64,000 bases of DNA from Thermoanaerobaculia bacterium. GTDB taxonomy: Bacteria > Acidobacteriota > Thermoanaerobaculia > Gp7-AA8. This document shows, one piece after another, positions 1,646 through 53,963 of the stretch (within the stretch, counting starts at the first letter, position 1; each line of letters opens with the position of its first letter). The notes under the pieces are model-generated. The model was given only the letters and a program-made list of their open reading frames with translations, ran no database searches and was not told the DNA's origin. Where the stretch lies: NCBI GenBank assembly GCA_036399695.1, contig DASWMP010000322.1, positions 8,997 through 72,996 on the forward strand, in the 5' to 3' direction. A program made the translations under genes and the position numbers.

Positions 1646-1812
1646 GCAGAACGGTAGCTTCGTTGCGGAAGGCAATCTCGGAGTGCGGTGGCGAGCTTCA
1701 TCCAGCCACCGCTCTGCTACAGGTGTAACAGAGCGGTGGCTACGGAGGCAAAATGCCGCCTCCTCCGGAGGGTGTCTCAAAACGGAGCGCACACACTCTG
1801 ATGGCCTAGAAA

Positions 1813-1946
1813 CCGGCGCCTGCGGGCGCAGACAGACAAGAGTGTCTGTCCCACATTGAATGCCAGTGTGCCCGCGGGTGCCCGATATTCGGCGGAATCT
1901 GAATGTGGGACAGACACTCCTGTCTGTCCGCGCCCGCAGGCGCCGG
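1813..1946. repeat. R1 REP-like element: two inverted 44-bp arms (core ATGTGGGACAGACACTCYTGTCTGTC) flanking a ~46-bp spacer.
   Basis: Arms at 1813-1856 and 1903-1946 are near-perfectly complementary. The same 26-bp core recurs at 18302, 26656/26730 and 40824. Confidence 0.85.
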
Positions 1947-2030
1947 TTCATCGGCGGCAGAACCAAGGGAGAGATCGAGGCGCACCGTTTTGAGACACCC
2001 TCCGTTCGCCACCGCACTCCGAGATTTAGC

Positions 2031-16296: not shown

Positions 16297-16355
16297 GTGA
16301 GCTCCGATTTTCGATTCACGATTTCCGATTTCCTGGCGGCGCTGGTTTCGCGCCG

Positions 16356-18301: not shown

Positions 18302-18327
18302 ATGTGGGACAGACACTCTTGTCTGTC
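18302..18327. repeat. R1 solo 26-bp palindromic unit.
   Basis: atgtgggacagacactcttgtctgtc. Confidence 0.8.
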
Positions 18328-18424
18328 TCTTTCCCGCTTCGAAAGAGCAGGGAGAAAGTGACGGGGATTCGGTGCGGCGCCTTCAGGCGCCCGCGACTCG
18401 TGGGGGGGCGGCAGCGGCCGCGGC

Positions 18425-22266: not shown

Positions 22267-22282
22267 TTTTTGCGGAGAACGA

Positions 22283-22368
22283 CGGGACCTATGGGACAGA
22301 TGGGACCAATGGGACAGATGAGAGTCTCATTGGTCCTCTCGGTCCCATAGGTCTCATCTGTCCCGACA
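22283..22368. repeat. R6 9-mer element in a palindromic (hairpin) arrangement.
   Basis: Direct 9-mers (gggacctatgggacagatgggaccaatgggacagatg) are followed by their reverse complement. Confidence 0.8.
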
Positions 22369-22935
22369 GACGTGCCAGACTTCAGTCTGAGGCCGTCACA
22401 CCTAAGTTCGAGGTCGCGGAACTTCTGTTTGAGGCCGCCGCATCTCTGTTTGAGGCCGCCGCATCTCAGTTTTGAGGTCGCCGCATCTCAGTTTTGAGGC
22501 CGCCGCATCTCAGTTTGAGGCCGCCGCATCTCAGTTTGAGACCGCCGCACCTCAGTTTTGAGGACGCCGCATCTCAGTTTGAGGCCGCCGCACCTCAGTT
22601 TTGAGGACGCCGCACCTCAGTTCGAGGCCGCCGCACCTCAGTTTTGAGGCCGCCGCATCTCAGTTTGAGGCCGCCGCACCTCAGCTTCGAGGTCGCCGCA
22701 CCTCAATTTGACGCCACCGAACTTCAGTTTCGAGGCCGCCGCACCCCAGTTTTGAGGTCGCCGCGCCGCAATTTAAGGCCGCCCCAGCTCAGTTTGAGGC
22801 CGCCTCATCTCGATTTGAGGCCGCCGCACCTCAGCTTCGAGATCGCCGCGCCTCAGTTTCGAGGGCGCCGCGCCTCAATTTCAGGTCGCCGCACCTCAAT
22901 TCGAGGTCGTCGCACCTTGTTTTGACATCGCTGAA
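22363..22935. repeat. Tandem array of about 27 contiguous 21/22-bp units (GAGGCCGCCGCATCTCAGTTT[T]). It is not a CRISPR.
   Basis: Units abut with no spacers and degenerate toward the right end. Each unit contains the short palindrome TGAG...CTCA. Confidence 0.9.
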
Positions 22936-26655: not shown

Positions 26656-26755
26656 ATGTGGGACAGACACTCCTGTCTGTCCGGCCCACCCCCGAGGTCC
26701 TCCAGACAAGCGGCCGTTCGGGTGCACCGGACAGACAAGAGTGTCTGTCCCACAT
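26656..26755. repeat. R1 element: two inverted 26-bp units around a 48-bp spacer.
   Basis: atgtgggacagacactcctgtctgtc ... gacagacaagagtgtctgtcccacat. Confidence 0.85.
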
Positions 26756-32314: not shown

Positions 32315-32531
32315 CGCTGCTGTGTAGGTATCCCGAAGAGAGACCGGACGGGGGCGCCTCCGGCGGGCGGCCACGGGCCGCAGCGCTGGTTGGCGAAGCC
32401 GCCGTCGACCCTACTTGCTAACGTGTTAACTGCGATGCCGTGCGCCGAGCCTGAGGCAACAAGCGCTGCGGCCCGTGGCCGCCCGCCGGAGGCGCCCCCG
32501 TGGTTTCTCTTCGGATACCTACACAGCAGCG
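32315..32531. mobile_element. R7 MITE-like element, about 217 bp, with long terminal inverted repeats.
   Basis: Inner TIR GGCGCCTCCGGCGGGCGGCCACGGGCCGCAGCGCTGGTTGGC, plus outer self-complementary ends gctgctgtgtaggtatcccgaagagaga ... tctcttcggatacctacacagcagc. Other copies sit at 47831 and 53787. Confidence 0.8.
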
Positions 32532-34703: not shown

Positions 34704-34730
34704 CCCGCGCCGAAGTGTACCAGCGGAGGC

Positions 34731-34830
34731 AGTTGGCGGTTGGCAGTTGGCGGTTGGCAGTGGACAAAGCAAGGAACCGGTGCTCGGCCGGTGCCGGCGC
34801 CTCATCCACAGCCAACCGCCAACTGCCAAC
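34731..34830. repeat. R2 palindromic element in a divergent intergenic region.
   Basis: agttggcggttggcagttggcggttggcag ... cagccaaccgccaactgccaac. Confidence 0.85.
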
Positions 34831-34912
34831 AGGCCCCGGGAGGGGCGGCGATGGAGAAGGAATTGCTTTCGAGTCCACGGATCGTGTTGAATCAACGAAC
34901 GATGGACGGTGC

Positions 34913-36175
34913 ATGTACGGATTACTCGCGCGTCGCAATGTATTGACGATGATCCTGGCGGGCGGTATGGGTGAGCGGTTGTTTCCGCTCACGCGGGACC
35001 GTGCGAAGCCGGCGGTGCCGTTTGGCGGCCGCTATCGGATCATCGACTTCGCGATCAACAACTTCATCAACTCCGGCTTCTTCAAGATCAAGGTGCTGAC
35101 GCAGTTCAAATCGAACTCGCTGATCGAGCACATCACGCGCACCTGGCGGCTCGTGCCGGAGATCGGGCAGTACGTGGACGTCGTGCCGGCGCAGATGCGC
35201 AAGGGGCCATTCTGGTTCCGTGGCACCGCGGACGCCGTCTTCCAGAACCTCGAGCTGATCTTCGACGAGAAGCCCGAATACGTCTGCGTCTTCGGCGGCG
35301 ATCACATCTACAAAATGGATGTGAACCAGATGCTGCAGGAGCACATCAACAACGACGCCGACCTCACGATCGCCACCGTGCCGGTGCCGGTCGAGGAGTC
35401 GGTGCACTTCGGCGTCGTGGAGATCGATTCCGACTACCGCGTCACCGGGTTCGTGGAGAAGCCAAAGGAGGGGGCCAAGACCATCCCCGACCGGCCGAAC
35501 ATGATCCTGGCGTCGATGGGCAACTACATCTTCAAGGCCAGCGTGATGATCGACGTGCTGCAGCGGAACGCGCTGCGCAACTCGGCGCACGACTTCGGCA
35601 AGGAGATCATCCCGGCGATGTACCCGCGGATGAAGGTGTTCGCGTACGACTTCGGCGCGAACCGCATCCCGGGCGAAGAGGCGCACAACCAGGGCTACTG
35701 GCGCGACGTCGGGACCATCGATTCGTATTTCGCGGCGGCGCTCGACCTCGTCTCGGTCACGCCGGCGTTCAACCTGTACAACCCGAGCTGGCCGATCATC
35801 TCCGCGCCGCTGCACCTGCCGCCCGGCAAGTTCGTCTTCGCCGATTCGGCCTCGCAGCGCATCGGCATCGCCACCGATTCGCTCGTCTCCGACGGGTCGA
35901 TCATCTCGGGCGGCACGATCAACCGCTGCGTGCTGCATCCGCGCGTGCGCGTCAATTCGTACGCCGACATCGACGAGTCGATCCTCATGGACGGCGTCGA
36001 GGTCGGCCGCCATTCGAAGATCCGCCGCACGATCGTCGACAAGGGCGTGAAGATCCCGCCGCACACCACCATCGGCTACGACCTGGAAGCCGACCGCCAG
36101 CGCTTCACCGTCACCGAGTCCGGGATCGTGGTCGTCCCGAAAGGCTCGCTGATCGAGGAACGAGTCAACGCATGA
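34913..36175 (+). CDS. glgC: Glucose-1-phosphate adenylyltransferase.
   Basis: [14 protein letters not shown]...KPAVPFGG and a left-handed beta-helix C-terminus. The start could instead be 34949. Confidence 0.9.
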
Positions 36176-37073: not shown

Positions 37074-39515
37074 CTATCGTTTCCTCGCGGCAATCCGCGG
37101 CGCCACGATCAACCCCACCACCGTCAGCACGAACACCCCCACCCCCACCCGCCACGACCAGGGCGCGTAGCGCACGCGCACTTCCGTCGTCCCGGGCGGC
37201 ACGGCGTAGCCGAGAAACGCGCCGTTCACGCGGATCATCGGGGCGGACTCGCCGTTGCGCGTGACCTGCCAGCCGGGCCACCAGGGGATCGAGCTCACGA
37301 TGAGCGTCCAGCGTGGTGCGTTCACGCGCATCGTGTAATCGGCCGTGGAGAAACGCGTGAGCGCGAGGGTGGCGTTCGGGGACCCGGGCGGGCGAGGGAC
37401 GAAAAAGTCGGTGCGGATGGCGTCGTCCTCGACTTTCAGCTCGTCGACGAGCGCGGTCACGGCGTAATCGGTGTGCTTCGTCAGCTTCTCGATGAACTCC
37501 GCGTCGCGGAACTCCGGCACCACGTTCTGCGCCACGTAAAAGCGCGGCAGCACGTCGTGGTTCTGATAGATGCGGCCATCGCGGCCGTCGTAAACGAGGC
37601 GATAGCGATCGCGGTCGCTCGGCTCGTACTGCGGCGGCGTGATGACGTACTTCACGCCGAGGTAATCGAGCAGCCGCGTGTCGAGATTCGTCCACTTCGC
37701 GAAGTAGTCGGACGTGTCGTAGCCCGTCGCTACCCGCAGCACGCCGAGGTAACGGCCGTTGGCCATCGGATCGTGCGCGCGGACGTCTTCGAGGCCGTAG
37801 ATCGCCGAGACGTTCGGGAAGAAGATCGGACCGGTGCCGACGATGCGGAACGGCGCCCGCTCCTGTGCCTTCAGCTCGAGCAGCTTCGCGATCAGCGGCG
37901 TCTTCGGATACATCATCCGCTCTGGCAGCACCGGGTTCCACGAGCGCCCCACGGCCCACAACTCCGCGATCACGGCCACGAGCACGAACAGCACGGCGAA
38001 ATCGCGGGAGCGGCCGCGCAGCAGCGGCGCGAGTGCGGCCAGCGCCAGCACGACGATCGTCGGCAGCAGCGCCGCGACCGTCCCCTGCATCCAGGCCACC
38101 TTCTCGTAATCGACGTAGAAGAACATCCACGCTACCGAGATCGCGGCGCCGAGGATGCCGAGCAGGTAGGCGCGCGTATGGCCGCGCTGCAGCAGGTCGA
38201 TGAGCGCCGCGGCCATCACCGCCACCATCAGCGCGAACAGCCCGCGCATGCGCATGTTCGCGGCGAGCCGGAAGAAGAAATGGAACACGTCGCTGATGAC
38301 CGGCCAGACCATGATGATGCCGACCGAAATCAGCGTGATGAGCACGAACAGGGTCTCGCGCGAGCGCCAGCGCCGTGTGGCGACGATGTGCGCCACGAGC
38401 GCGAAGAAGCCGGCGATGCCGAGGTAGCCGGCGAAGCCGCTGATGGCCTCGGCGTGCGACGGTCCCCACGCCTGCTCGAACGGCACTTCCCCGAAAAAGT
38501 GCGGCTGCACCGTGGCGATGAACGACGGCCAGTCGGAGAACGGCGTCATGATCCCGGGCGGGTTCGCCTTCAGCTCGTGGTAGCGCTTCGACTTCGTCAC
38601 CGACTCGGCGAAGGGGATGAGAAACGGCGCCGCCAGCAGCGCCGCCACCGTCATGGCCCCGCCGAGCACCAGGACGTAGCGCAGCCCGTCGCGCCACGCC
38701 GGAAACGGCCGCTCCACGAACAGCAGCCAGAGCAGGAACATCATCGCCAGGAAGAAGGTGTGCGAGACCGTCTCCGGATGCCCCCCGAACAGCATCGCCG
38801 CCCACAACGCCGCCGCGCCGGCGAACCGCGCGTACGTGACCCTCTCCGCCAGCAGATCCATGAGCCAGAGGACCCCGGGGATGAACGCCGCCACGGTCGC
38901 CAGCGGAAAGTGCAGCCAGACGACCAGGAATGTGCAGAATCCGTAACACATCCCGCCGATGACGCTGGCGATCTCCGAGTACCGCCTCCGGCAGAAGAGA
39001 AACGTAAGCGTCATGCCGATCAACAGCTTCCACGCGGCCTCGGCCGTCATGGCGTGCCCTAGATCGAGGGGGAGTGCGAGGATACGTAACGGCGACAAAG
39101 CGGAGCTCTGACCCGCTGCCAGGAGCGGATATCCTGCACCAGAAGCGGCGTTCCAGAGCGGCGCGGAGCCCGAAGACCAGCTCTCCCGAACCTGATGCGC
39201 CCACGGCACGAGCTGCAGCGCCAGGTCATTGAGCTGCGAGTTCTGCGTTTCCGGCGCATGCCGCGCCAGGTACGCCCAGGGCGGCAGCGTCTGCACGAAA
39301 TCGACCGGCAGATTGACCGCGTCCGTGACCATCGGCCGGAAGAGAAACAGCAGCACGAGCAGATAGAAAAAAGACGCAACCCGGCGCCGCAACTCCACGC
39401 CCCCGCGCCGCAGCAACCAGACGGCCGCTGCATAGACGAGCCCGACGTAGATCCAGGTGGGGTTCAACACAGGGGGCGCATGATACCCGGCAGCGTGGCG
39501 CAGCCGAACTGGCAT
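37074..39515 (-). CDS. YfhO-family polytopic membrane protein (glycosyltransferase-like), paralogue 1.
   Basis: 813 aa with many TM helices and a C-terminal periplasmic domain. Colinear with the gene at 40059..42308. Confidence 0.75.
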   Translation of the reverse strand: MPVRLRHAAGYHAPPVLNPTWIYVGLVYAAAVWLLRRGGVELRRRVASFFYLLVLLFLFRPMVTDAVNLPVDFVQTLPPWAYLARHAPETQNSQLNDLALQLVPWAHQVRESWSSGSAPLWNAASGAGYPLLAAGQSSALSPLRILALPLDLGHAMTAEAAWKLLIGMTLTFLFCRRRYSEIASVIGGMCYGFCTFLVVWLHFPLATVAAFIPGVLWLMDLLAERVTYARFAGAAALWAAMLFGGHPETVSHTFFLAMMFLLWLLFVERPFPAWRDGLRYVLVLGGAMTVAALLAAPFLIPFAESVTKSKRYHELKANPPGIMTPFSDWPSFIATVQPHFFGEVPFEQAWGPSHAEAISGFAGYLGIAGFFALVAHIVATRRWRSRETLFVLITLISVGIIMVWPVISDVFHFFFRLAANMRMRGLFALMVAVMAAALIDLLQRGHTRAYLLGILGAAISVAWMFFYVDYEKVAWMQGTVAALLPTIVVLALAALAPLLRGRSRDFAVLFVLVAVIAELWAVGRSWNPVLPERMMYPKTPLIAKLLELKAQERAPFRIVGTGPIFFPNVSAIYGLEDVRAHDPMANGRYLGVLRVATGYDTSDYFAKWTNLDTRLLDYLGVKYVITPPQYEPSDRDRYRLVYDGRDGRIYQNHDVLPRFYVAQNVVPEFRDAEFIEKLTKHTDYAVTALVDELKVEDDAIRTDFFVPRPPGSPNATLALTRFSTADYTMRVNAPRWTLIVSSIPWWPGWQVTRNGESAPMIRVNGAFLGYAVPPGTTEVRVRYAPWSWRVGVGVFVLTVVGLIVAPRIAARKR

Positions 39516-39547: not shown

Positions 39548-39760
39548 ATGAAAAGCCGCGTCGTCACCTCTTCGCCCGATGTCATGGGCGGGACCCCCGT
39601 CTTTGCCGGGACACGTGTACCAGTAGAGACCCTGCTCGATTACCTCGAGGGCGGCGATTCGATCGACGAGTTCCTTGAAGGCTTCCCCTCGGTCACGCGC
39701 GAGCAGGTGATCGCCTTTCTGGAGGAGACGAAAGCGCGCGTGCTCGCTGAAGTCGGATGA
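39548..39760 (+). CDS. DUF433 protein (putative antitoxin).
   Basis: MGGTPVFAGTRVPVETLLDYLEGGDSIDEFLEGFPSVTREQV matches the DUF433 core. The stop overlaps the ATG of the next gene (ATGA). Confidence 0.8.
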   Translation: MKSRVVTSSPDVMGGTPVFAGTRVPVETLLDYLEGGDSIDEFLEGFPSVTREQVIAFLEETKARVLAEVG

Positions 39761-40089
39761 GAATTCTGCTCGACGAGTGCGTCGACTGGCGGCTGCTCCG
39801 TGATCTAGCTGGCCATGAAGTGAGAACCGTTCGGCAGATGGGGTGGCTCTCATCGATGGATGGGGACCTGCTGCGCTCGGCCGAAGCCGAATTCGAAGCG
39901 CTGATCACGACCGACAAGAATCTGTCGTTTCAACAGAACGTCCTGAGCTTTGGTCTCGCCGTCGTCGTGCTGCAAGGCCGGACGTCGCGTCTCCAGCACC
40001 TTCGCGAGCTGGTTCCGCGGCTTCTCCAGGAACTGCCGAACGTACAAGCCGGAATGCTTCATACCGTCTCCTGGCGCGCCCTGAGTTGA
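39757..40089 (+). CDS. DUF5615 PIN-like protein (putative toxin).
   Basis: MRILLDECVDWRL... matches the DUF5615 N-terminus. It is coupled to the DUF433 gene. Confidence 0.75.
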   Translation: MRILLDECVDWRLLRDLAGHEVRTVRQMGWLSSMDGDLLRSAEAEFEALITTDKNLSFQQNVLSFGLAVVVLQGRTSRLQHLRELVPRLLQELPNVQAGMLHTVSWRALS

Positions 40090-42308
40090 GCGGCGACGGC
40101 GACAGCCGTTAGAAAGCCGATCAACACGCCGACCCGGAAGCTCCAGGGCGCGTAATCCACCACCACCTCCCGGCTCCCGGCCGGCACGTCGAAGCCCACG
40201 AACGCGCCGTCCACTTTCACCACGTCAAAGCCCTTCGCGCGCCAGCCGGGGTAGAAGGGGATGCTGCTGACGATACGCGCCGGTTTCGAGGCGTCGATGC
40301 GGAGGCGGTAGCGGGTGCCGCGCTTGGCGATGATGCGCACGTTCGCGTCATCGGAGAAGAACCGCGGTTTGGCGGTGGCGTTTTCGTAGATGCGGCCGTC
40401 GGGGCCGTCGTAGAGGAGGCGGTGTTTCGGCAGGTCGCGGGCCGGTTCGGTGAGGATCCAGCGGACGTTGAGGCGGTCGAGCGCGGGCGAATCGGGCTCA
40501 TTCCACTTGGCGAAGTACTCCTTCGTTTCGTACGACGAATGGGCGCGCAGCCAGGCGATGGCGGCGGCGCTGGCCATCGGGTCGTGCTGGCGGAGGTCGT
40601 CGACGCCGAAGAGGACGTGCGCGTTCGGGAACAGCACCGGCCCGAGGCCGACGACGCGATACGGGCCGGGAGCCTCGTCCACGAGCTTCTGCAGCGCGCC
40701 CGTCATGAGCGTGCCGGGATAAGCCTCGGACGCCGGGACGACGGGGTTCCAGTCGCGCATGGCGAACCAGAGCTCGAAGAGCATGGCCGCGATGAGAAAC
40801 ACCGGGAAGACGGTCTGCTTCTGATGTGGGACAGACACTCTTGTCTGTCCGCCGATCAAAGCCACGAGCAGCACGACGCCGCTCGGCACCAGCACGCGCA
40901 CATCCATCGGCGGCACCTGCAGCACGACGAACGCCCCGACCGCCGCCGCGAACAGCACACCGACGCCGCTGCCCAAGCGGCTCCGGTAATGCAGCAGGGC
41001 GGCGATCTGCATCGCCCCGAAGAAGCAGAACAGCAGCCGCAGGCGCGGGTTCATGATGGCGCCGACGATGCCGGCATACGGCGGCTCTCCCGGCGCCGAG
41101 CCGTTGAGAAACGCGAACGTGACGGCCATGGCCACGACGAAGAACAGCTCCACGGAACGCCAGGCCCGGCGGCGGATGACGTCCACGAGCACCCCGGCCC
41201 AGGCGGCGATGGCCAGCACGCCGGCGAAGCCGCCGAGCGTCTCCGCCGGCATCCCCAGCCCTCGCCCGAAGTAGCGCGGATGAAGCATCGGCGCGAGCGA
41301 GCGGAGATCGGAGTACGGCATGCCGAGGTACGCGTGCCCCTGCAACTCGGCGAAGCGATGCGAGCGTGTGGCGGCTTCGTAGAAAGGGAGCAGCAGCGGC
41401 GCCGCGAGCAGCGCCGCGCCGATCATTGCGAGGAGGATCGACGCAACGAACCGCCCGCGCTGAAGATCAGGAACCGTGATGATCAGCCACAGCGCGTACG
41501 CGCCCGCGCCGAGTGCGATGAGCGTGAGGCTTTCCGGGTGACCGCCAAAGGCGATCAGCGCGCCGAGGATGGCGCTCAGGGCGATGGCCTTGCGGCGGGA
41601 GCCGCCCCCCGCCACCGAATCGACTGCCAGCAGCACCACCGGCAGCCAGCACACCGTGCTGGCAATGGCGAAGTGCAGCCACACGACCACGAACGAGCAG
41701 AACCCGAACGCCACCGCGCCGGCCACGCTCGGCAGCTCCCCGTACCCGCGGCGACGGCAGAACAGATACATCCCCGTCAACGCCACGAGCAGCTTCATCG
41801 CGGCTTCGGCGGCGATGGACGGCCCGAGGGGCAGCGGCAGCGCGAGCAGCCGGAACGGCGAGAGCGCGGCACTCTGCGCGTTCGCCAACAGCGGATACCC
41901 GAGCCCGGCGCGCTCGTTCCAGAGCGGCACGTCCAGCGCGCGCCACGACTCCCGCACCTGATGCGCCCACGGCACCGTCTGCATCGGCAGATCGTGGATC
42001 TCGAAGTTCGAAACCCCGAACTTATCCAGCGCCCCATACGCCGACCAGGGCGGCAGCAGCCGGATCACGTCCACCGGATAGTTGACGACGTTCGCCACCA
42101 GCGGACGCCAGAGGAACGCCAGCACCAGCAGGTAGAAGAGGGCGGCGATGCGCCAGGGAACGAGAGGACGTTGTTCGTTGTCCGTTGTCCGTTGTCCGTG
42201 CTCCGCTGCACGATGGTCACGGCGGAGCGCAGCGCGGACAACGGAAAACGAACAACGGGCAACGACGATCCCGTACACCACGAGCACCAGCAGCCACGCG
42301 AGGTTCAT
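40059..42308 (-). CDS. YfhO-family polytopic membrane protein, paralogue 2, carrying two in-frame repeat insertions.
   Basis: Colinear with the gene at 37074..39515. Start taken at MNLAW (42308), which overlaps the tyrA stop (ATGA). The Arg-rich upstream part of the long ORF was ignored. Confidence 0.75.
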   Translation of the reverse strand: MNLAWLLVLVVYGIVVARCSFSVVRAALRRDHRAAEHGQRTTDNEQRPLVPWRIAALFYLLVLAFLWRPLVANVVNYPVDVIRLLPPWSAYGALDKFGVSNFEIHDLPMQTVPWAHQVRESWRALDVPLWNERAGLGYPLLANAQSAALSPFRLLALPLPLGPSIAAEAAMKLLVALTGMYLFCRRRGYGELPSVAGAVAFGFCSFVVVWLHFAIASTVCWLPVVLLAVDSVAGGGSRRKAIALSAILGALIAFGGHPESLTLIALGAGAYALWLIITVPDLQRGRFVASILLAMIGAALLAAPLLLPFYEAATRSHRFAELQGHAYLGMPYSDLRSLAPMLHPRYFGRGLGMPAETLGGFAGVLAIAAWAGVLVDVIRRRAWRSVELFFVVAMAVTFAFLNGSAPGEPPYAGIVGAIMNPRLRLLFCFFGAMQIAALLHYRSRLGSGVGVLFAAAVGAFVVLQVPPMDVRVLVPSGVVLLVALIGGQTRVSVPHQKQTVFPVFLIAAMLFELWFAMRDWNPVVPASEAYPGTLMTGALQKLVDEAPGPYRVVGLGPVLFPNAHVLFGVDDLRQHDPMASAAAIAWLRAHSSYETKEYFAKWNEPDSPALDRLNVRWILTEPARDLPKHRLLYDGPDGRIYENATAKPRFFSDDANVRIIAKRGTRYRLRIDASKPARIVSSIPFYPGWRAKGFDVVKVDGAFVGFDVPAGSREVVVDYAPWSFRVGVLIGFLTAVAVAAQLRARQETV
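40824..40849. repeat. R1 26-bp unit inside the YfhO paralogue 2 coding sequence, in-frame.
   Basis: atgtgggacagacactcttgtctgtc is translated as GQTRVSVPH, a segment absent from paralogue 1. Confidence 0.8.
42165..42262. repeat. R4 palindromic element (CGTTGTCCGTTG arms) inside the N-terminal coding region of YfhO paralogue 2.
   Basis: cgttgttcgttgtccgttgtccgttgtccg ... cggacaacggaaaacgaacaacgggcaacg. The same motif forms the outer arms of the R3 copy at 50921. Confidence 0.75.
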
Positions 42309-43141
42309 AGGGCGTCGTAGAGTTTGCGGGCCTGGTCGTAGGCGGCGACGTCGCCGTCGATGATGGCGCGGACGAGCTTGGCCAGTTCTTCCGCGTGCCG
42401 CGCGAGTTGCTCGCGGTTCGCGGCGACGATCGGGGCCCAGACGCTGCCGTCGCTGCCGGCCAGGCGGAGGAACGTGCGCAGGCCGCTGCCGGCGAACCGG
42501 AGCTGGTCCTCGTCGAGGTAAGCGGCGAGGGCGGTGGAGAGGATCTGCGGCAGATGGCTCGTCAGGGCGACGCCGGCGTCGTGCTCGCGCGCGTCGACGC
42601 GGTCGCGGATCGCGCCGCACGCGTCGATCATCGAGTCGACGAGCGGGTCGTCGGCGTCGACGAACCAGCGGTGGTTCTCGAACAGATCTGCGCGCGCCGC
42701 CGCGAGGCCGCGCTCCTGCGAGCCGGCCATCGGGTGACCGGCGATGAAGCGTGTGGTGGCGGCGTCGCGCAGCGGGGCCATGACGCTGCACACGGAGGTC
42801 ACGGTGGCGGGGGTGCGCAGGGTGCGCAGGATGCGCACCGCGATATCCACCGGGGTGGCCAGGATGATCAGATCCGGTGGGGGACCGGGGGAGACGATGG
42901 GACCAATGGGACCAATAGGACCGATGGGACTAATGCCTTCGGGTGGGCTCCCATTGGTCCCATCTGTCCCATAGGTCCCATCGTCCCTTGTGGACCACCG
43001 CTCATCCGCCGCCTCCGCCCCCCGCGCGGCCTCCGGGCTCACCTGCGGGTCCACGAACGCCACCCGCCAGCCGCTTGCGCGGAGGCGGATGCCGATCGAG
43101 CCGCCGATCAGGCCGAGGCCGGCGATGAGGACGCGGGGCAT
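42305..43141 (-). CDS. tyrA: Prephenate/arogenate dehydrogenase with an in-frame repeat-encoded insert.
   Basis: Rossmann start VLIAGLGLIGGS, the TyrA core, and a 33-aa GT/GPIGPIGPI insert encoded by the R6 repeat. Confidence 0.85.
   Translation of the reverse strand: MPRVLIAGLGLIGGSIGIRLRASGWRVAFVDPQVSPEAARGAEAADERWSTRDDGTYGTDGTNGSPPEGISPIGPIGPIGPIVSPGPPPDLIILATPVDIAVRILRTLRTPATVTSVCSVMAPLRDAATTRFIAGHPMAGSQERGLAAARADLFENHRWFVDADDPLVDSMIDACGAIRDRVDAREHDAGVALTSHLPQILSTALAAYLDEDQLRFAGSGLRTFLRLAGSDGSVWAPIVAANREQLARHAEELAKLVRAIIDGDVAAYDQARKLYDAL
42896..42988. repeat. R6 9-mer palindromic element lying in-frame inside tyrA.
   Basis: gatgggaccaatgggaccaataggaccgatgggac...cccattggtcccatctgtcccataggtccc. 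Confidence 0.8.
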
Positions 43142-43145
43142 GGCA

Positions 43146-43685
43146 TCAGCGCGTCATCAGCACGAGCGTGCGATCCACCACCTGGGACGTCGTCACGTCA
43201 AAATACGGACGCTGGATCGTCACGCGGGGGCGGTTCGGGCGTGGGGTGATGTCGGCGGCGCGGTAGCTGCCGACGGCTTTCGTCACGTCCGTATTCAGGC
43301 CGAGCTGCTTTGTGATCGGCTCGATGGCCTTCACGTCGCCGGCGAGGTCGCCCGTGCGGTAGTAGGCCGGCGGCTTCGCGGCGCTCAGGTTGTTCGTGGC
43401 GTCCGGGGCCACGCCGCTGTACCCATAGGATTTGGCGTAGAACTGCGCCACTTCCTCGACCGAGGCTTCAGTGTCGTAGATGGCGGTCGGAGGCGGCTCC
43501 TGGTTCGGGGCCATCGTCTTATGTGCGTTCTTCGTCGCCTCGGTCAACTGGCCGAGGTAGCGCGCGCCGGGGTAGACCACGAAGCTGAAGGCTTCGGGCT
43601 CCGCGTACTCCTCTTCCTTGTTGCAGGCAGCCAGCGCGGCGAGCACGAGCAGCGCGGCCAGAATGACTCTCAATTTCGTACGCAT
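43146..43685 (-). CDS. Hypothetical lipoprotein.
   Basis: Signal peptide plus lipobox (LAALAAC). Start taken at MRTKLRV (43685). Confidence 0.6.
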   Translation of the reverse strand: MRTKLRVILAALLVLAALAACNKEEEYAEPEAFSFVVYPGARYLGQLTEATKNAHKTMAPNQEPPPTAIYDTEASVEEVAQFYAKSYGYSGVAPDATNNLSAAKPPAYYRTGDLAGDVKAIEPITKQLGLNTDVTKAVGSYRAADITPRPNRPRVTIQRPYFDVTTSQVVDRTLVLMTR

Positions 43686-43712
43686 GAATGGGTTTCTCTC
43701 TATGGGCAGTTC

Positions 43713-43788
43713 AGTTGGCGGTTGGCAGTTGGCGGTGGCCTTGACGATGGTTGACTCCCGCCAACTGCCAACCGCCAACTGCCAACAG
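43713..43788. repeat. R2 palindromic element.
   Basis: cagttggcggttggcagttggcgg ... ccgccaactgccaaccgccaactgccaac. Confidence 0.85.
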
Positions 43789-43803
43789 CCTTTGCGGCGC
43801 GGA

Positions 43804-44136
43804 TTATACGGAGCGGGGGCCATTCCCGTTGATGTAGTCGACGACGCTGCTGCCCGTGACCTCGGAAAAACGCTCCGTATACGACCGGATAGCCCCGGCC
43901 GCCTCGTCGAGGAAAATCCGCTCGACCCTGAACAGCGGCACGAACATCGTCACGAGATCGATGCTCGGCTCGTCTCCCCGCGCAATCTGCCGCAGCCAGT
44001 CATCGAACGAATCGAGATTGATGGCCCGCATCGTCACCCCCGCCGGCGAAAGTGAGCTCAGCAACCCGAAGAACTTCTCCTTCGGATTGACGAGGTTGAC
44101 GATGACGGGAGCGTTTTTCTCGAAGCCTTCGATCAT
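43804..44136 (-). CDS. Hypothetical protein, 110 aa.
   Basis: GC3 bias and no recognisable domain. Confidence 0.45.
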   Translation of the reverse strand: MIEGFEKNAPVIVNLVNPKEKFFGLLSSLSPAGVTMRAINLDSFDDWLRQIARGDEPSIDLVTMFVPLFRVERIFLDEAAGAIRSYTERFSEVTGSSVVDYINGNGPRSV

Positions 44137-44148
44137 TTGCGTGGGTGC

Positions 44149-44272
44149 AGTTAACCCTGAGCGAAGCGAAGGGTCAATGGAGCCTCAGCGACGGCGCAGA
44201 CCATCGACGCATTGCGTGGCAGAGGCCGTCGCTGAGGCTCCATTGATCCTTCGCTTCGCTCAGGATTAAACC
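44149..44272. repeat. R8 palindromic element (CCTGAGCGAAGCGAAGGGTCAATGGAGCCTCAGCGAC arms).
   Basis: Its right end, caggattaaac, supplies the TAA stop codon of the epimerase gene. Confidence 0.85.
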
Positions 44273-44670: not shown

Positions 44671-44797
44671 CAACCCTGAGCGAAGCGAAGGGTCAATGGA
44701 GCCTCAGCGAGGTGGTCAACCACCGGCGCATTGCATGGCGAGGGTCGTAGCTGAGGCTCCATTGATCCTTCGTCGCTTCGCTCCTCAGGATTAACTC
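44671..44797. repeat. R8 palindromic element.
   Basis: Its right end supplies the TAA stop of deoA. Confidence 0.85.
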
Positions 44798-46104: not shown

Positions 46105-46189
46105 AGGCGCGTGATTCTACGGTGGATGGGGCCGGAATGGTGGCTGGTGGTCAGTGGCGGTGCCTGACGTCCGGCCATCGATCGGCCGA

Positions 46190-46495
46190 AATCGCTCGAC
46201 GAGCACCCGCGATCGGTGGCCCGTCACCAGGAATCAGTCATCGATCACCGGGAATCGGTGGCCGATCGCCGAAAATCGGGCATCGATGACTGATTTCCCA
46301 CGGATCGTGACCGGAATTCAGTCGCGCGTCACCGAAATTCAGTCACGCGTGACCGAAATTCGGTGGCCGGCGTCGGGAAATCGGTCGCTGGCCCCCGAAA
46401 ATCACTCGTCGATCACGGAAAATCAGTCATCGATCACGGAAAATCAGTGATCGATCACCGAAAATCACTCACCACCGGCCACGACCTACCCCAGC
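46190..46495. repeat. Tandem array of about 12 degenerate 21-bp units (consensus CACCGAAAATCAGTCATCGAT) upstream of queC.
   Basis: Units occur head-to-tail in both orientations. The last three are near-identical. Confidence 0.85.
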
Positions 46496-46510
46496 TAAAC
46501 TCCCGCCGCC

Positions 46511-47830: not shown

Positions 47831-48004
47831 GGGAGGAGACGACCGGGGCGCCTCCGGCGGGCGGGCACGGCCCGCGGCGTTTGTTGCCTCAGGCTCGGCG
47901 TACCGCGTCGCGATCAACACGTTCGTAAGTAGGGTCGACTGCGGCTTGGCCAACCAGCGCCGCGGGCCGTGCCCGCCCGCCGGAGGCGCTCTCGTCGGCT
48001 CCCC
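47831..48004. mobile_element. R7 MITE-like element, opposite orientation to the copy at 32315.
   Basis: TIRs ggggcgcctccggcgggcgggcacggcccgc ... gcgggccgtgcccgcccgccggaggcgc. Confidence 0.8.
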
Positions 48005-49194: not shown

Positions 49195-50168
49195 TGCTTT
49201 TGAAGGTGTTGTCGGTTGTCCGTTTTCCGTCGTTCGTGGTGTGTGCGGTGCTGATCGCCGGGAGTGCGTTGGCGCAGGTGGATGCGACGCGCGTGGCGAA
49301 TGACGCCATGGTCGTCGACCGGGTGGCCGAGGCGAGTAAGCGCGATCTGCCGGTGGACTTGTTGAAGCGCATCGTCAATGAGGACATCGAGCTGCTGCGC
49401 GGGCGGAGCGCGAACGGGCTGTATCAGTATGCCCGGTACGAGCGCATCGAGGGCGGACGCGTGTCGCGCGCAAGCTCGGTGCAGCCGCCGGACAAGAAGA
49501 GCGAGACGCGCGTGCTCGAAGTGTCGGCGCCGCTCGCTTACCGGCTCATCCTCGACTCGCCGTCGCGGCGGATGCTCGTCACGCGAAACCGTCCGGTGTT
49601 CATCGAGCGGGTCGAAGTGGAGTACGTCCCGCAGGGCGCGTCGGCGACGAAGCGGGAGACGATCAGCATCGAGGCGAACCTGAATCCCGGCGAGGTGCGG
49701 GCGGTCGATCTGCCGGACATCGCACGGCAGGCGACGGTACGGATCTTCGCCCGCGCGGACGAGGAGCAGGGTTACGCGAACCTGACGGCGACGCTGATCC
49801 AGGCGCGCGTGGTCGACAATCCGGAGAGCCCGTACGCGGATGCGGTGGCGAGTGCGAAGTCGCTGGTGAAGTCGCTCGACAATAACGATGTCGGCTCGGT
49901 GCGATCGCTGGCGTCGCGCATCCGGCAGCAACTCCGTGCGCCGGGGGCGCAGGATGGTGCACCGTCCACGCAGGCCGCCTCGCAGCTCCAGGCGCAGCCC
50001 GCTACGCGCACGATCGAAGTGACGGCGTCGCGTGATGACGCGCAGCCGCCGATCGAAACTTATACGGAGTTGCAGCTCATCGAGGATCTGCTGACGGGAA
50101 ATGCTGACGAAAAAAGGGAAGGGCTCGACAGGCTGCACCAACTGCTACGGAAACTGCGCCCTCGCTGA
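49194..50168 (+). CDS. Hypothetical secreted protein, 324 aa, coupled to deoB by a TGATG junction.
   Basis: Signal peptide (VCAVLIAGSALAQ) and no recognisable domain. Confidence 0.55.
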   Translation: MLLKVLSVVRFPSFVVCAVLIAGSALAQVDATRVANDAMVVDRVAEASKRDLPVDLLKRIVNEDIELLRGRSANGLYQYARYERIEGGRVSRASSVQPPDKKSETRVLEVSAPLAYRLILDSPSRRMLVTRNRPVFIERVEVEYVPQGASATKRETISIEANLNPGEVRAVDLPDIARQATVRIFARADEEQGYANLTATLIQARVVDNPESPYADAVASAKSLVKSLDNNDVGSVRSLASRIRQQLRAPGAQDGAPSTQAASQLQAQPATRTIEVTASRDDAQPPIETYTELQLIEDLLTGNADEKREGLDRLHQLLRKLRPR

Positions 50169-50920: not shown

Positions 50921-51087
50921 CGTTGTTCGTTGCCCGTTGCCCGTTGCCCGTGTTTCAGGTTGTTGGTTTTCGGTTGTTGGTTGTTGGTGCTCCGCTCGGT
51001 TTTACCAACAACCAACAACCAACAACCAAAAACCGGCCCCAACGGACAACGGACAACGTGCAACGTGCAACGTGCAACGGACAACGC
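50921..51087. repeat. Composite R3 element with outer R4-type arms (CGTTGCCCGTTG / CAACGGACAACG).
   Basis: cgttgcccgttgcccgtg...ggttgttggttgttgg...ccaacaaccaacaacc...caacggacaacggacaacgtgcaacg. Confidence 0.8.
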
Positions 51088-51107: not shown

Positions 51108-52016
51108 ATGACTGCCCCCCGCCTCCCCGAGTGGATCCGCGAAAAGAAACTCAATCTCTCGCAGCTTCGGGACATCAAGACGATGTTCCGGGAGCGCGAT
51201 CTGCACTCGGTGTGTGAGTCGCTGGCCTGCCCGAACCGCTCCGAATGTTTCTCCCGCGGCACCGCGACGTTCATGATCCTCGGCGATGTCTGTACGCGCG
51301 CCTGCGGCTTCTGCAACGTGACCACGGGGCTGCCGTACGCGCCGCCGTCGCCGGGCGAGCCGCGCGCGGTCGCGGAGACGGCGCAACGCATGGGGCTGCG
51401 GCATGTGGTCGTGACCTCGGTGACGCGCGACGATCTGCCGGACGGCGGCGCGCAGCAGTTCGCCGAAACGATCCGCGAGCTGCGCAAGTTGCTGCCCCAC
51501 GTCGCCGTCGAGGTGCTGACCCCCGACTTCCGCGGCAATCTCGAAGCGGTCCGCACCGTCGCCGCCGCCCGTCCCGATTACTACAACCACAACGTCGAGA
51601 CGGTCCCTCGCCTGTATCGTCACGTCCGTCCCGGTTCCCGCTTCGAACGCTCCCTGGAAGTGTTGCGCGAGGCGAAGAAGACCGCCGGCACGGTCACAAA
51701 GTCCGGCCTCATGCTCGGCCTCGGCGAAACACGCGAGGAGGTCGTCGAGGTGCTGCACCGGCTCAAGGAGTCGGAGGTGGCGATCGTCACGATCGGCCAG
51801 TACCTGCAGCCGAAACGGCACAAGCTCGACGTCGTGGAGTACGTGCATCCGACGGTCTTCGAGGAGTACCGGGAGATCGGTGAGTCGCTCGGTTTCCGGG
51901 CGGTGTTCTCCGGGCCGTTCGTCCGCAGCTCGTACATGGCGGACGTGGTTGCCGCGCACTCCAATCCTGAGGAGCGAAGCGATCGAAGGATCAATGGAGC
52001 CTCAGCGACGATCTGA
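51108..52016 (+). CDS. lipA: Lipoyl synthase. The C-terminal 17 or so residues are encoded by an R8 repeat.
   Basis: CPNRSEC and CTRACGFC cluster motifs and a radical-SAM core. Confidence 0.95.
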   Translation: MTAPRLPEWIREKKLNLSQLRDIKTMFRERDLHSVCESLACPNRSECFSRGTATFMILGDVCTRACGFCNVTTGLPYAPPSPGEPRAVAETAQRMGLRHVVVTSVTRDDLPDGGAQQFAETIRELRKLLPHVAVEVLTPDFRGNLEAVRTVAAARPDYYNHNVETVPRLYRHVRPGSRFERSLEVLREAKKTAGTVTKSGLMLGLGETREEVVEVLHRLKESEVAIVTIGQYLQPKRHKLDVVEYVHPTVFEEYREIGESLGFRAVFSGPFVRSSYMADVVAAHSNPEERSDRRINGASATI

Positions 52017-52062
52017 GCTTCATAGCTGAGGCTCCATAGACCCTTCGCGGCGCTCAGGGTTC
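51964..52062. repeat. R8 palindromic element overlapping the 3' end of lipA.
   Basis: cctgaggagcgaagcgatcgaaggatcaatggagcctcagcgac ... gctgaggctccatagacccttcgcggcgctcagg. Confidence 0.8.
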
Positions 52063-53786: not shown

Positions 53787-53963
53787 GGGGAGAGGACCGA
53801 CCAGGGGCCTCCGGCGGGCGGCCACGGGCCGCAGCGCTGGTTGGCCGAGCCGCAGTCGACCCTACTTACTAAGGTGTTGACCGCGACAACCACCGCGCAG
53901 CCTATGGCAACAAGCGCTGCGGCCCGTGGCCGCCCGCCGGAGGCCCCTCGGTCGTCTTCCCCC
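53787..53963. mobile_element. R7 MITE-like element.
   Basis: ggggagaggaccgaccaggggcctccggcgggcggccacgggccgcagcgctggttggc ... gccgcccgccggaggcccctcggtcgtcttcccc. Confidence 0.8.

Follow-up and report, generated by a model that had tools for sequence, protein, structure and literature searches.

In-frame palindromic repeats of two unrelated families in a YfhO-family gene of an uncultured Acidobacteriota lineage

Our analysis of 64 kb of a metagenome-assembled genome (MAG) of a Thermoanaerobaculia bacterium (contig DASWMP010000322.1; this whole stretch of 64,000 nucleotides is called the window below) suggests, with good confidence, that two unrelated families of small dispersed palindromic repeats have inserted into the coding sequence of a functional YfhO-family gene (40059..42308, minus strand; hereafter yfhO), that the resulting peptides were tolerated in loops of the protein and that they have been drifting since. 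The two elements, a 27-nt unit called R1 and a 96-nt palindrome called R4, would have inserted after a relative with 70% identity had split off, in an ancestor shared by the window organism and a relative whose YfhO is 88% identical, adding about 9 (R1) and about 24 (R4) residues. They may owe their survival to landing in short basic loops that connect helices, between transmembrane helices 1 and 2 (TM1-TM2) in one case and between the last two helices before the C-terminal domain in the other, where YfhO would tolerate extra disordered peptide. Since then the encoded peptides would have drifted, while the arrays would have gained or lost whole units or frame-preserving blocks.

Results

Two repeat families in one gene

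R1 (40824..40850, plus strand; ATGTGGGACAGACACTCTTGTCTGTCC) is an exact match to its family of REP-like (repetitive extragenic palindromic) hairpin units. It consists of an ATGTGG tail containing a GTGG tag, a 9-bp stem and a 4-nt loop, with the tag strand antisense to yfhO, and on the yfhO strand it reads as exactly nine codons, GQTRVSVPH (residues 487-495). An earlier reading of the window, made from its letters alone and called here the sequence-only reading, had located the site and its peptide correctly, with a length of 26 bp (40824-40849) that falls one nucleotide short. The hairpin folds at -19 kcal/mol (z -4.6). Six copies of the 22-nt core are present in the window, where 0.00 are expected, and five of the six are intergenic; these include an inverted, REPIN-like (REP doublet forming hairpin) pair at 1804..1955 with 54-nt arms that are 91% complementary, a single unit at 18302..18328 (plus strand) and another inverted doublet at 26656..26755. 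R1 is thus a short imperfect palindrome, dispersed and mostly extragenic, as is expected of a REP, and it forms the doublets expected of a REPIN. All copies compared have ATGTGG 5' of the stem, and its GTGG, a reported variant of the GTAG tag, may play the role of that tag.

R4 (42169..42264) is a 96-nt palindrome with two arms of 39 nt (42169-42207 and 42226-42264) that are 85% complementary and separated by an 18-nt spacer. Four tandem heptamers (CGTTGTC and variants) and then GTGCTCCGC make up each arm, and Tandem Repeats Finder (TRF) independently reports CGTTGTC with a period of 7 and 4.4 copies at 42169-42199. The element encodes about residues 16-47 of YfhO (VARCSFSVVRAALRRDHRAAEHGQRTTDNEQ), a basic peptide with 7 Arg and a net charge of about +3, and folds as mRNA at -61 kcal/mol (z -7.8). 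The element itself had been recognized before, with coordinates (98 bp, 42165-42262) that are off by only a few bases, and its description as unrelated to R1 holds: the one is a tagged hairpin unit, the other a palindrome of heptamer arrays, and they belong to separate families.

The nearest relative of R4 in the window is an intergenic sister copy, the outer palindrome at 50921..51085, one arm of which (50921-50952) is 91% identical to an R4 arm. This copy has a hairpin of GGTTGTT units nested in the loop of a hairpin of CGTTGYC units, which suggests that the loops of heptamer-array elements are themselves insertion targets. At least nine more hairpins in the window share the R4 architecture with other heptamers (GTTGGCR, GTTGTTG, CAGAACG), and TRF finds at least ten further arrays of period 7 or 14. 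A half-array at 49207-49238, considered as a further R4 relative, lies within the coding region of a signal peptide, has no inverted partner and is probably due to chance. Beyond the window, a CGTTGTC heptamer array followed by GTGCT was found on 18 metagenome contigs (L019-L036) of 40-69% G+C, several of which carry full array palindromes with other heptamers (GGTCAGY, GTTGTCA), so that, judging from these contigs, the array-palindrome architecture appears to be widespread in environmental bacteria. An Rfam scan of the whole window gave no family at the gathering score, and below threshold only generic hairpins resembling miRNA precursors.

The host gene is intact and the repeats lie within it

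The 749-aa product of yfhO, a GT-C glycosyltransferase of the YfhO family, is identical to a protein annotated as hypothetical in a Thermoanaerobaculia MAG (VGF69_20500). It matches Pfam YfhO (PF09586) with 57.8 bits (E 9e-16), above the curated cut-off of 28.5, and at least 120 of its homologues are annotated as YfhO. An AlphaFold2 model computed with 54 homologues as input reached a predicted local distance difference test score (pLDDT) of 89.7 and a predicted template modelling score (pTM) of 0.93; its best Foldseek matches are the glycosyltransferases of the GT-C fold ArnT (5f15, E 8.5e-6) and PglB, and it shows the multi-helix membrane domain and extracytoplasmic C-terminal domain of such enzymes. 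The acidic residues of the first outer loop are also present, D106 being invariant and D80 nearly invariant among the homologues. Compared with its counterpart on contig L001 (see below), yfhO has a synonymous divergence (dS) of 0.34, a non-synonymous divergence (dN) of 0.056 and a ratio (omega) of 0.16. The gene is thus under purifying selection and appears to be functional, and its reading frame is intact, which speaks against the concern that a missed frame disruption might make it a pseudogene.

The first codons of the gene deserve attention, R4 being so close to them. The start codon overlaps the stop codon of the upstream dehydrogenase gene in an ATGA (42305..42308, minus strand), the junction CTATGAAC is unchanged in the window, L001 and L002, and this overlap fixes the yfhO start upstream of R4. 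The N-terminal helix that precedes R4 (MNLAWLLV..Y; consensus MN.aW...) is kept in all 54 aligned homologues, and the stretch from R4 to the conserved second helix offers no in-frame start, so that R4 truly lies within the gene.

The inserts are specific to one lineage

A search covering 5.8 billion proteins returned only two close orthologues: P0002 (88% identity, 749 aa), encoded on the JGI metagenome contig L001, and P0003 (70%, 717 aa), encoded on the fully syntenic contig L002 of another Thermoanaerobaculia MAG. All remaining YfhO homologues have at most about 47% identity. In DNA alignments L001 has both R4 and R1, and L002 has neither; both are also lacking in 51 more distant homologues and in the YfhO paralogue that lies next to yfhO in the window (37074..39515, minus strand; 813 aa, Pfam YfhO 8e-24). 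This paralogue carries no repeat and offers an uninserted comparison; it is 42% identical to the yfhO product over a colinear alignment, as the sequence-only reading had held. The alignment of paralogue and orthologues that it had proposed as a check identifies the segments as lineage-specific, and homologous residues in repeat-free relatives, which would have spoken against insertion, are found neither in L002 nor in the 51 homologues.

For R4 the excess of peptide is plain. Counted between conserved anchors, the window and P0002 have 36 residues in the TM1-TM2 loop and P0003 has 23, against a median of 12 (range 6-19) in the 51 other homologues. The net gain is therefore 24 aa relative to most homologues and 13 aa relative to L002, for an element of 32 codons. 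The idea that the longer L002 loop (22 residues versus ~11) might be a decayed R4 gained no support: its alignment to R4 was no better than that of shuffled sequences (p 0.07-0.13), and the L002 segment has no fold either (z +1.4). The claim of extra peptide at both elements, well founded for R4, is weak for R1 when judged by the paralogue: the excess there is only 4 aa, and the comparison carries little weight because the length of the R1 loop varies from 13 to 42 residues across the family. The case for an R1 insertion rests instead on its exact DNA match to a repeat family and on its absence from the 70% orthologue.

Both inserts are predicted to be loops

Within the otherwise confident AlphaFold2 model, the three 10-residue blocks over residues 21-50, which contain the R4 peptide, have pLDDT values of 58, 49 and 60 between helices 4-19 and 52-65, and the block 491-500, containing the R1 peptide, has a pLDDT of 59 between helices 470-488 and 501-517. 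Both inserts are accordingly modelled as low-confidence loops between transmembrane helices and predicted to be disordered, in line with the loop placement that had been suggested and that a topology prediction was to check. The corresponding loops of the homologues are short and basic (RRARID and RIRM), and the positive-inside rule together with the GT-C topology leads us to infer that both face the cytoplasm. A full-length YfhO is predicted to yield junction-spanning peptides such as TTDNEQRPLVPWR and VSVPHQK.

Why the reading frame survives

Both inserts keep the reading frame, as had been noted; the ORF is intact and the inserts measure 27 and 96 nt. R1 is open in six of six frames in all six copies, and R4 is open in five of six, encoding different peptides; over 22 elements, 97 of 132 frames are open versus 60.5 expected from shuffles. 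Since the lengths of R1 and R4 are multiples of three and the elements are almost free of stops, no special filter for frame preservation is needed. An R1 or R4 insertion cannot shift the frame and seldom brings in a stop, so that selection acts only where the extra peptide is harmful. Selection against harmful landing sites is visible in the intergenic position of 28 of the 31 repeat loci examined in the window, three being intragenic; the R1 and R4 families are otherwise intergenic there. The sequence-only reading was right in essence, with two refinements to the explanations that it offered: a filter for frame can be dispensed with, and repeat-driven evolution of protein loops is seen in miniature in L001.

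Changes after insertion

A comparison with P0002 shows 8 changed residues among 35 in the R4 peptide, versus 12% gene-wide. The 32 R4 codons have a dN of 0.107, a dS of 0.083 and an omega of about 1.3, based on small numbers (2 synonymous and 7 non-synonymous changes relative to L001), and the peptide appears to evolve with little or no constraint at the protein level. The G+C content of third codon positions (GC3) in R4 is 0.50 versus 0.90 for the gene, the lowest value among other 32-codon windows being 0.72. Directly after R1, 21 nt encoding QKQTVFP (40803..40823, minus strand) have been lost in L001, as seen in both DNA and protein alignments. This stretch is probably what is left of the ancestral basic loop, for which L002 has RRVQV, and with its deletion next to R1 the R1 peptide now forms the loop in L001. 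The same gene has acquired an extra 24-nt in-frame array in a third YfhO loop (L001:2098-2130; (GGAAATC) x about 4, peptide TRKSEIGNRKS) that is found in the yfhO of neither the window nor L002; in the window the array occurs in an intergenic position, at 16312-16333.

A third in-frame palindrome in the same operon

The gene upstream of yfhO (42305..43141, minus strand) is translationally coupled to it and encodes a prephenate dehydrogenase of 278 aa (Pfam PDH_N and PDH_C, with a gap in PDH_N). Within it, tandem 9-mers (ATGGGACCN and its complement) form a palindrome at 42885..42998, in frame and encoding about RDDGTYGTDGTNGSPPEGISPIGPIGPIGPIVSPG. The arms (42893-42929 and 42949-42985) are 86% complementary, TRF gives a period of 9, and the folding energy is -76 kcal/mol (z -8.3). 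The L002 orthologue has no such element and is 28 aa shorter; L001 shares the element with other numbers of 9-mer units. The element's non-synonymous difference (pN) is fourfold that of the rest of the gene (0.165 versus 0.04) and its GC3 is 0.53 versus 0.93. All three intragenic repeats of the window thus lie within 2.2 kb, in one translationally coupled operon.

On the other side of yfhO, between the two paralogues, lies a DUF433/DUF5615 gene pair (39548-40089, plus strand) with a toxin-antitoxin-like organization. The pair and yfhO converge, their 3' ends sharing 31 nt (40059-40089), and the pair is missing from the syntenic L002 locus.

R1 beyond the window

The exact R1 pattern, ATGTGGGACAGACA-N4-TGTCTGTCC, is present in at least seven phylum-level groups among the matches listed (L006-L018), the hosts among these matches being Thermoanaerobaculia, Terriglobia, Pyrinomonadaceae, Binatia, Planctomycetaceae, Verrucomicrobia, Kiritimatiellia and two cultured Cryobacterium species. 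Partner copies of the pattern carry compensatory variants in the stem (GGACAGGCA...GCCTGTCC). Such breadth at the level of phyla appears unusual for a REP-type element. One inverted R1 doublet (L018:5813-5920) lies in frame inside the adenylation domain of a non-ribosomal peptide synthetase, directly upstream of the LYRTGDL motif, and encodes DRQECLSHTSDGDTRIAAAGLMLDSGSMWDRHSCLS. The synthetase belongs to the same organism as L002, i.e. the MAG without R1 in yfhO; as this organism has R1 elsewhere, R1 was active in the lineage at large, and only the branch of the window and L001 shows it in yfhO. No common neighbouring gene was seen across phyla, the copies lying at the ends of assorted genes, and we dropped the idea that R1 is a cis-regulatory site. 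A literature search with the core sequence gave unrelated primers only, and a search of viral contigs for R1 gave no match.

Other repeats in the window

Repeats that run into apparent genes are not always part of them. The ORFs at 34715..36175 and 43146..43823 run through intergenic palindromes of the GTTGGCR heptamer, giving spurious N-terminal extensions; orthologues and gene calls start 66 and 46 codons further downstream, respectively. The window also holds repeats of other kinds. A 530-nt tandem array of about 12 copies with a period of 43 (22388-22917) is directly preceded by a 9-mer palindrome (22281-22365), and its 43-mer is made of two copies of a ~21-nt unit, TGAGGCCGCCGCACCTCAGTT, itself a small hairpin. 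A cluster of arrays with a 21-nt period (GAAAATCACTCATCGATCACG and variants; 46188-46487) lies upstream of a gene starting near 46499. A family of GC-rich palindromes of ~170 nt has three intergenic copies (32339-32510, 47835-48002 and 53788-53963), with arms of 52-56 nt that are 88-91% complementary and a 64-nt spacer. Finally, a palindromic family (GAGCGAAGCGAAGGGTCAATGGAGCCTCAGC...) occurs at 44151-44269 (45-nt arms, 96% complementary), 44672-44786 and 51984-52061, and flanks a glyoxalase-like gene.

Discussion

The Rickettsia palindromic elements (RPEs; PMC10969869) have as their hallmark that they lie in frame within functional genes. In the accounts given of them there and in PMC3733652, which cite Ogata et al. 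(2000, Science 290:347; 2002, Genome Res 12:808), RPEs are described as ~100-150 bp long with a conserved peptide per family, and as residing in AT-rich obligate intracellular alphaproteobacteria, where nearly half of the copies are intragenic. The elements described here resemble RPEs in being dispersed palindromes that sit in frame in unrelated functional genes, encode peptides that appear compatible with the fold and come in several families per genome. They differ in length (27 and 96 nt), in being GC-rich in a window of 66% G+C, in their host, a free-living Acidobacteriota MAG, and in the small share of intragenic loci (3 of 31). On the RPE descriptions neither belongs to that class, R1 being too short and R4 having no fixed peptide.

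R1 is closer to the REPs tagged with GTAG or CGTC, with which it shares a 27-nt imperfectly palindromic build, a 9-bp stem and an asymmetric 5' tail with GTGG, a variant of the GTAG tag that occurs in the GTAG-20 family of Opitutus terrae (PMC3733652). Di Nocera et al. (2013; PMC3733652) described intragenic REPs, with 7-9 aa encoded by a single unit, 20-30 aa by a dimer and some ORFs hit twice, and argued that the inserts sit in linkers or loops. R1 also resembles REPINs (Bertels and Rainey, 2011; PMC3116915): single units are found alongside inverted doublets whose spacers measure 28-44 nt, and most copies are intergenic, often next to the end of a gene. Unlike REPINs with their REP-associated tyrosine transposases (RAYTs), which have been described as mostly vertically inherited, R1 has an identical 23-base core in at least seven phylum-level groups and was found without a RAYT in the window and at the R1 loci searched (see below). 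We think it was probably mobilized by a single-strand transposase of the HUH/RAYT type.

The closest counterparts of the R4 family are the heptamer arrays of cyanobacteria. The name STRR (short tandemly repeated repetitive) for these arrays reportedly goes back to Mazel et al. in 1990. In Nostoc PCC 7120 an example is ttgtcagttgtcagttgtca (ttgtcag x 3), with 44 copies (PMC2408588, Table 3). Like the STRR sequences, the R4 family consists of 3-5 tandem heptamers in many dispersed, mostly intergenic copies with several heptamer variants per genome, and some of the units themselves are nearly alike (GTTGTCC versus GTTGTCA). Unlike them, R4-type arrays are arranged as two inverted arms around a spacer, forming hairpins of 75-165 nt, one of which is in frame in a gene; moreover, the host is a member of the Thermoanaerobaculia rather than a cyanobacterium, and the units (CGTTGTC, GTTGGCR, GTTGTTG, CAGAACG) are not those of canonical STRR. 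MITEs (miniature transposable elements with inverted repeats; ERIC, BOX, Nezha and others), for which in-frame ORF fusions have been reviewed (PMC10969869), are likewise small and non-autonomous, and a host ORF can run through them. They differ in having terminal inverted repeats derived from insertion sequences and target-site duplications, whereas the whole of R4 is one palindrome; no direct repeats flank R1 (ctgcttctg/R1/gccgat) or R4 (gagagga/R4/acgatcc), a weak negative as there is no close empty site. In-frame palindromes as such are thus already documented (PMC3733652, PMC10969869), and what is new here is the phylum and the repeat families. Less expected are the array-palindrome architecture, the weak signal of nucleotide conservation in R4 and the exact R1 core in at least seven phylum-level groups.

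Several observations sit uneasily with a history of insertion, tolerance and drift. The net gain at R4 is smaller than its 32 codons, so that some ancestral loop codons (about 8-10) must have been replaced; there is no empty site at close evolutionary distance; and no RAYT or terminal inverted repeat-associated tyrosine transposase (TIRYT) was found by tblastn with 10 published sequences in the 64-kb window or at 13 R1-bearing loci. The sole tblastn match to these sequences, on a heptamer-array contig (L036:122-586), was set aside, as it has unrelated terminal repeats of its own on either side and lies 5 kb away from the heptamer array. The inserts would be neutral on this account, and two further points hint at constraint at the nucleotide level that pure neutrality does not predict: the proportion of synonymous differences (pS) in R4 is low (0.078 versus 0.276 in the rest of the gene, Fisher p 0.02), and its GC3 has stayed at 0.50 even though the insertion predates a dS of 0.34.

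These last points lead to the most serious competing explanation, which we nevertheless regard as unlikely: that the palindromes are kept for a function of the nucleic acid in the operon, the peptide being only a passenger. The R4 hairpin, located 47-142 nt into the yfhO message, could for instance throttle the translation coupled to the dehydrogenase gene, or could serve as an RNase III or stability element. In keeping with this, the hairpin is retained in both lineages (-59 kcal/mol in the window and -68 in L001 over the 96 nt), the nine differences include one compensatory G-C to T-A double change (positions 11 and 84), synonymous change is depressed in R4, where GC3 is lower than in any other 32-codon window of yfhO, the peptide evolves with an omega of about 1.3, and all three intragenic elements share one coupled operon. 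However, the counts are small (2 synonymous and 7 non-synonymous differences), and the pattern fits the plain decay of a better ancestral palindrome: the 39 arm pairs include 33 of the Watson-Crick type and 5 mismatches in the window, versus 35 and 3 in L001. Nine random changes to the L001 element give -49.7 +/- 6.1 kcal/mol versus -59.3 observed (p 0.07, in the conservative direction); the simulation in the other direction (p 0.0005) was rejected as strong support, as it shows only that L001 has the better palindrome. Synonymous change is not depressed in the dehydrogenase palindrome (pS 0.31 versus 0.19), and intergenic copies of the repeats occur in every kind of context. The evidence for selection on the R4 hairpin itself is thus suggestive only.

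Two other explanations carry much less weight. It is improbable that the inserted peptides have been co-opted, with selection on the protein retaining them for some new enzyme property, for instance a partner-binding site or altered topology signals. The basic R4 peptide does supply an RR pair where homologues have an RRAR loop, and the R1 peptide took the place of ancestral loop residues in L001; yet the R4 peptide, with its omega of about 1.3, has diverged more than the protein as a whole, both inserts are predicted to be disordered, and elsewhere, in different genes and frames, the repeats give rise to unrelated peptides. We consider an artefact of annotation or assembly, i.e. a start codon downstream of R4, a pseudogene or misassembled palindromes, to be more improbable still. 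Di Nocera et al. (PMC3733652) warned that many REPs apparently within N-termini are really extragenic, and the two ORFs with spurious extensions show that the window has such false cases. In yfhO, by contrast, the upstream helix is kept in 54 homologues, the ATGA overlap in three genomes, no later in-frame start exists and dN/dS is 0.16; the sequence is moreover identical in the NCBI, ENA and JGI assemblies, and a diverged copy with both elements is present in a fourth (contig L001). Insertion of two repeat families into yfhO, followed by tolerance and drift in its loops, remains the account that we favour.

A bolder and rather doubtful possibility is that the hairpins made of 7-mer or 9-mer arrays (R4, the one in the dehydrogenase gene and about 15 related elements of the window) form an undescribed class of structured repeats, with hairpins that may be actively maintained, accompanied by an R1 shared exactly across at least seven phylum-level groups. 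Array hairpins may be widespread in soil bacteria outside the cyanobacteria, with unit lengths and a stop-free composition that make them compatible with coding. If this were true, maintenance of a hairpin at the nucleotide level within a coding sequence would imply a function or an active maintenance mechanism.

Our findings add an uncultured lineage of the Acidobacteriota to Rickettsia and the few cultured genera in which protein-coding palindromes were known, and offer a simple reason for the preservation of the reading frame, namely unit lengths that are multiples of three and nearly all frames open. For annotation, they imply that repeat-rich MAGs hold both genuine loops encoded by repeats and false N-terminal extensions that run through intergenic repeats. 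The three related loci, empty in L002, inserted in the window, and inserted and remodelled in L001, provide a natural series for the passage from selfish repeat to protein loop.

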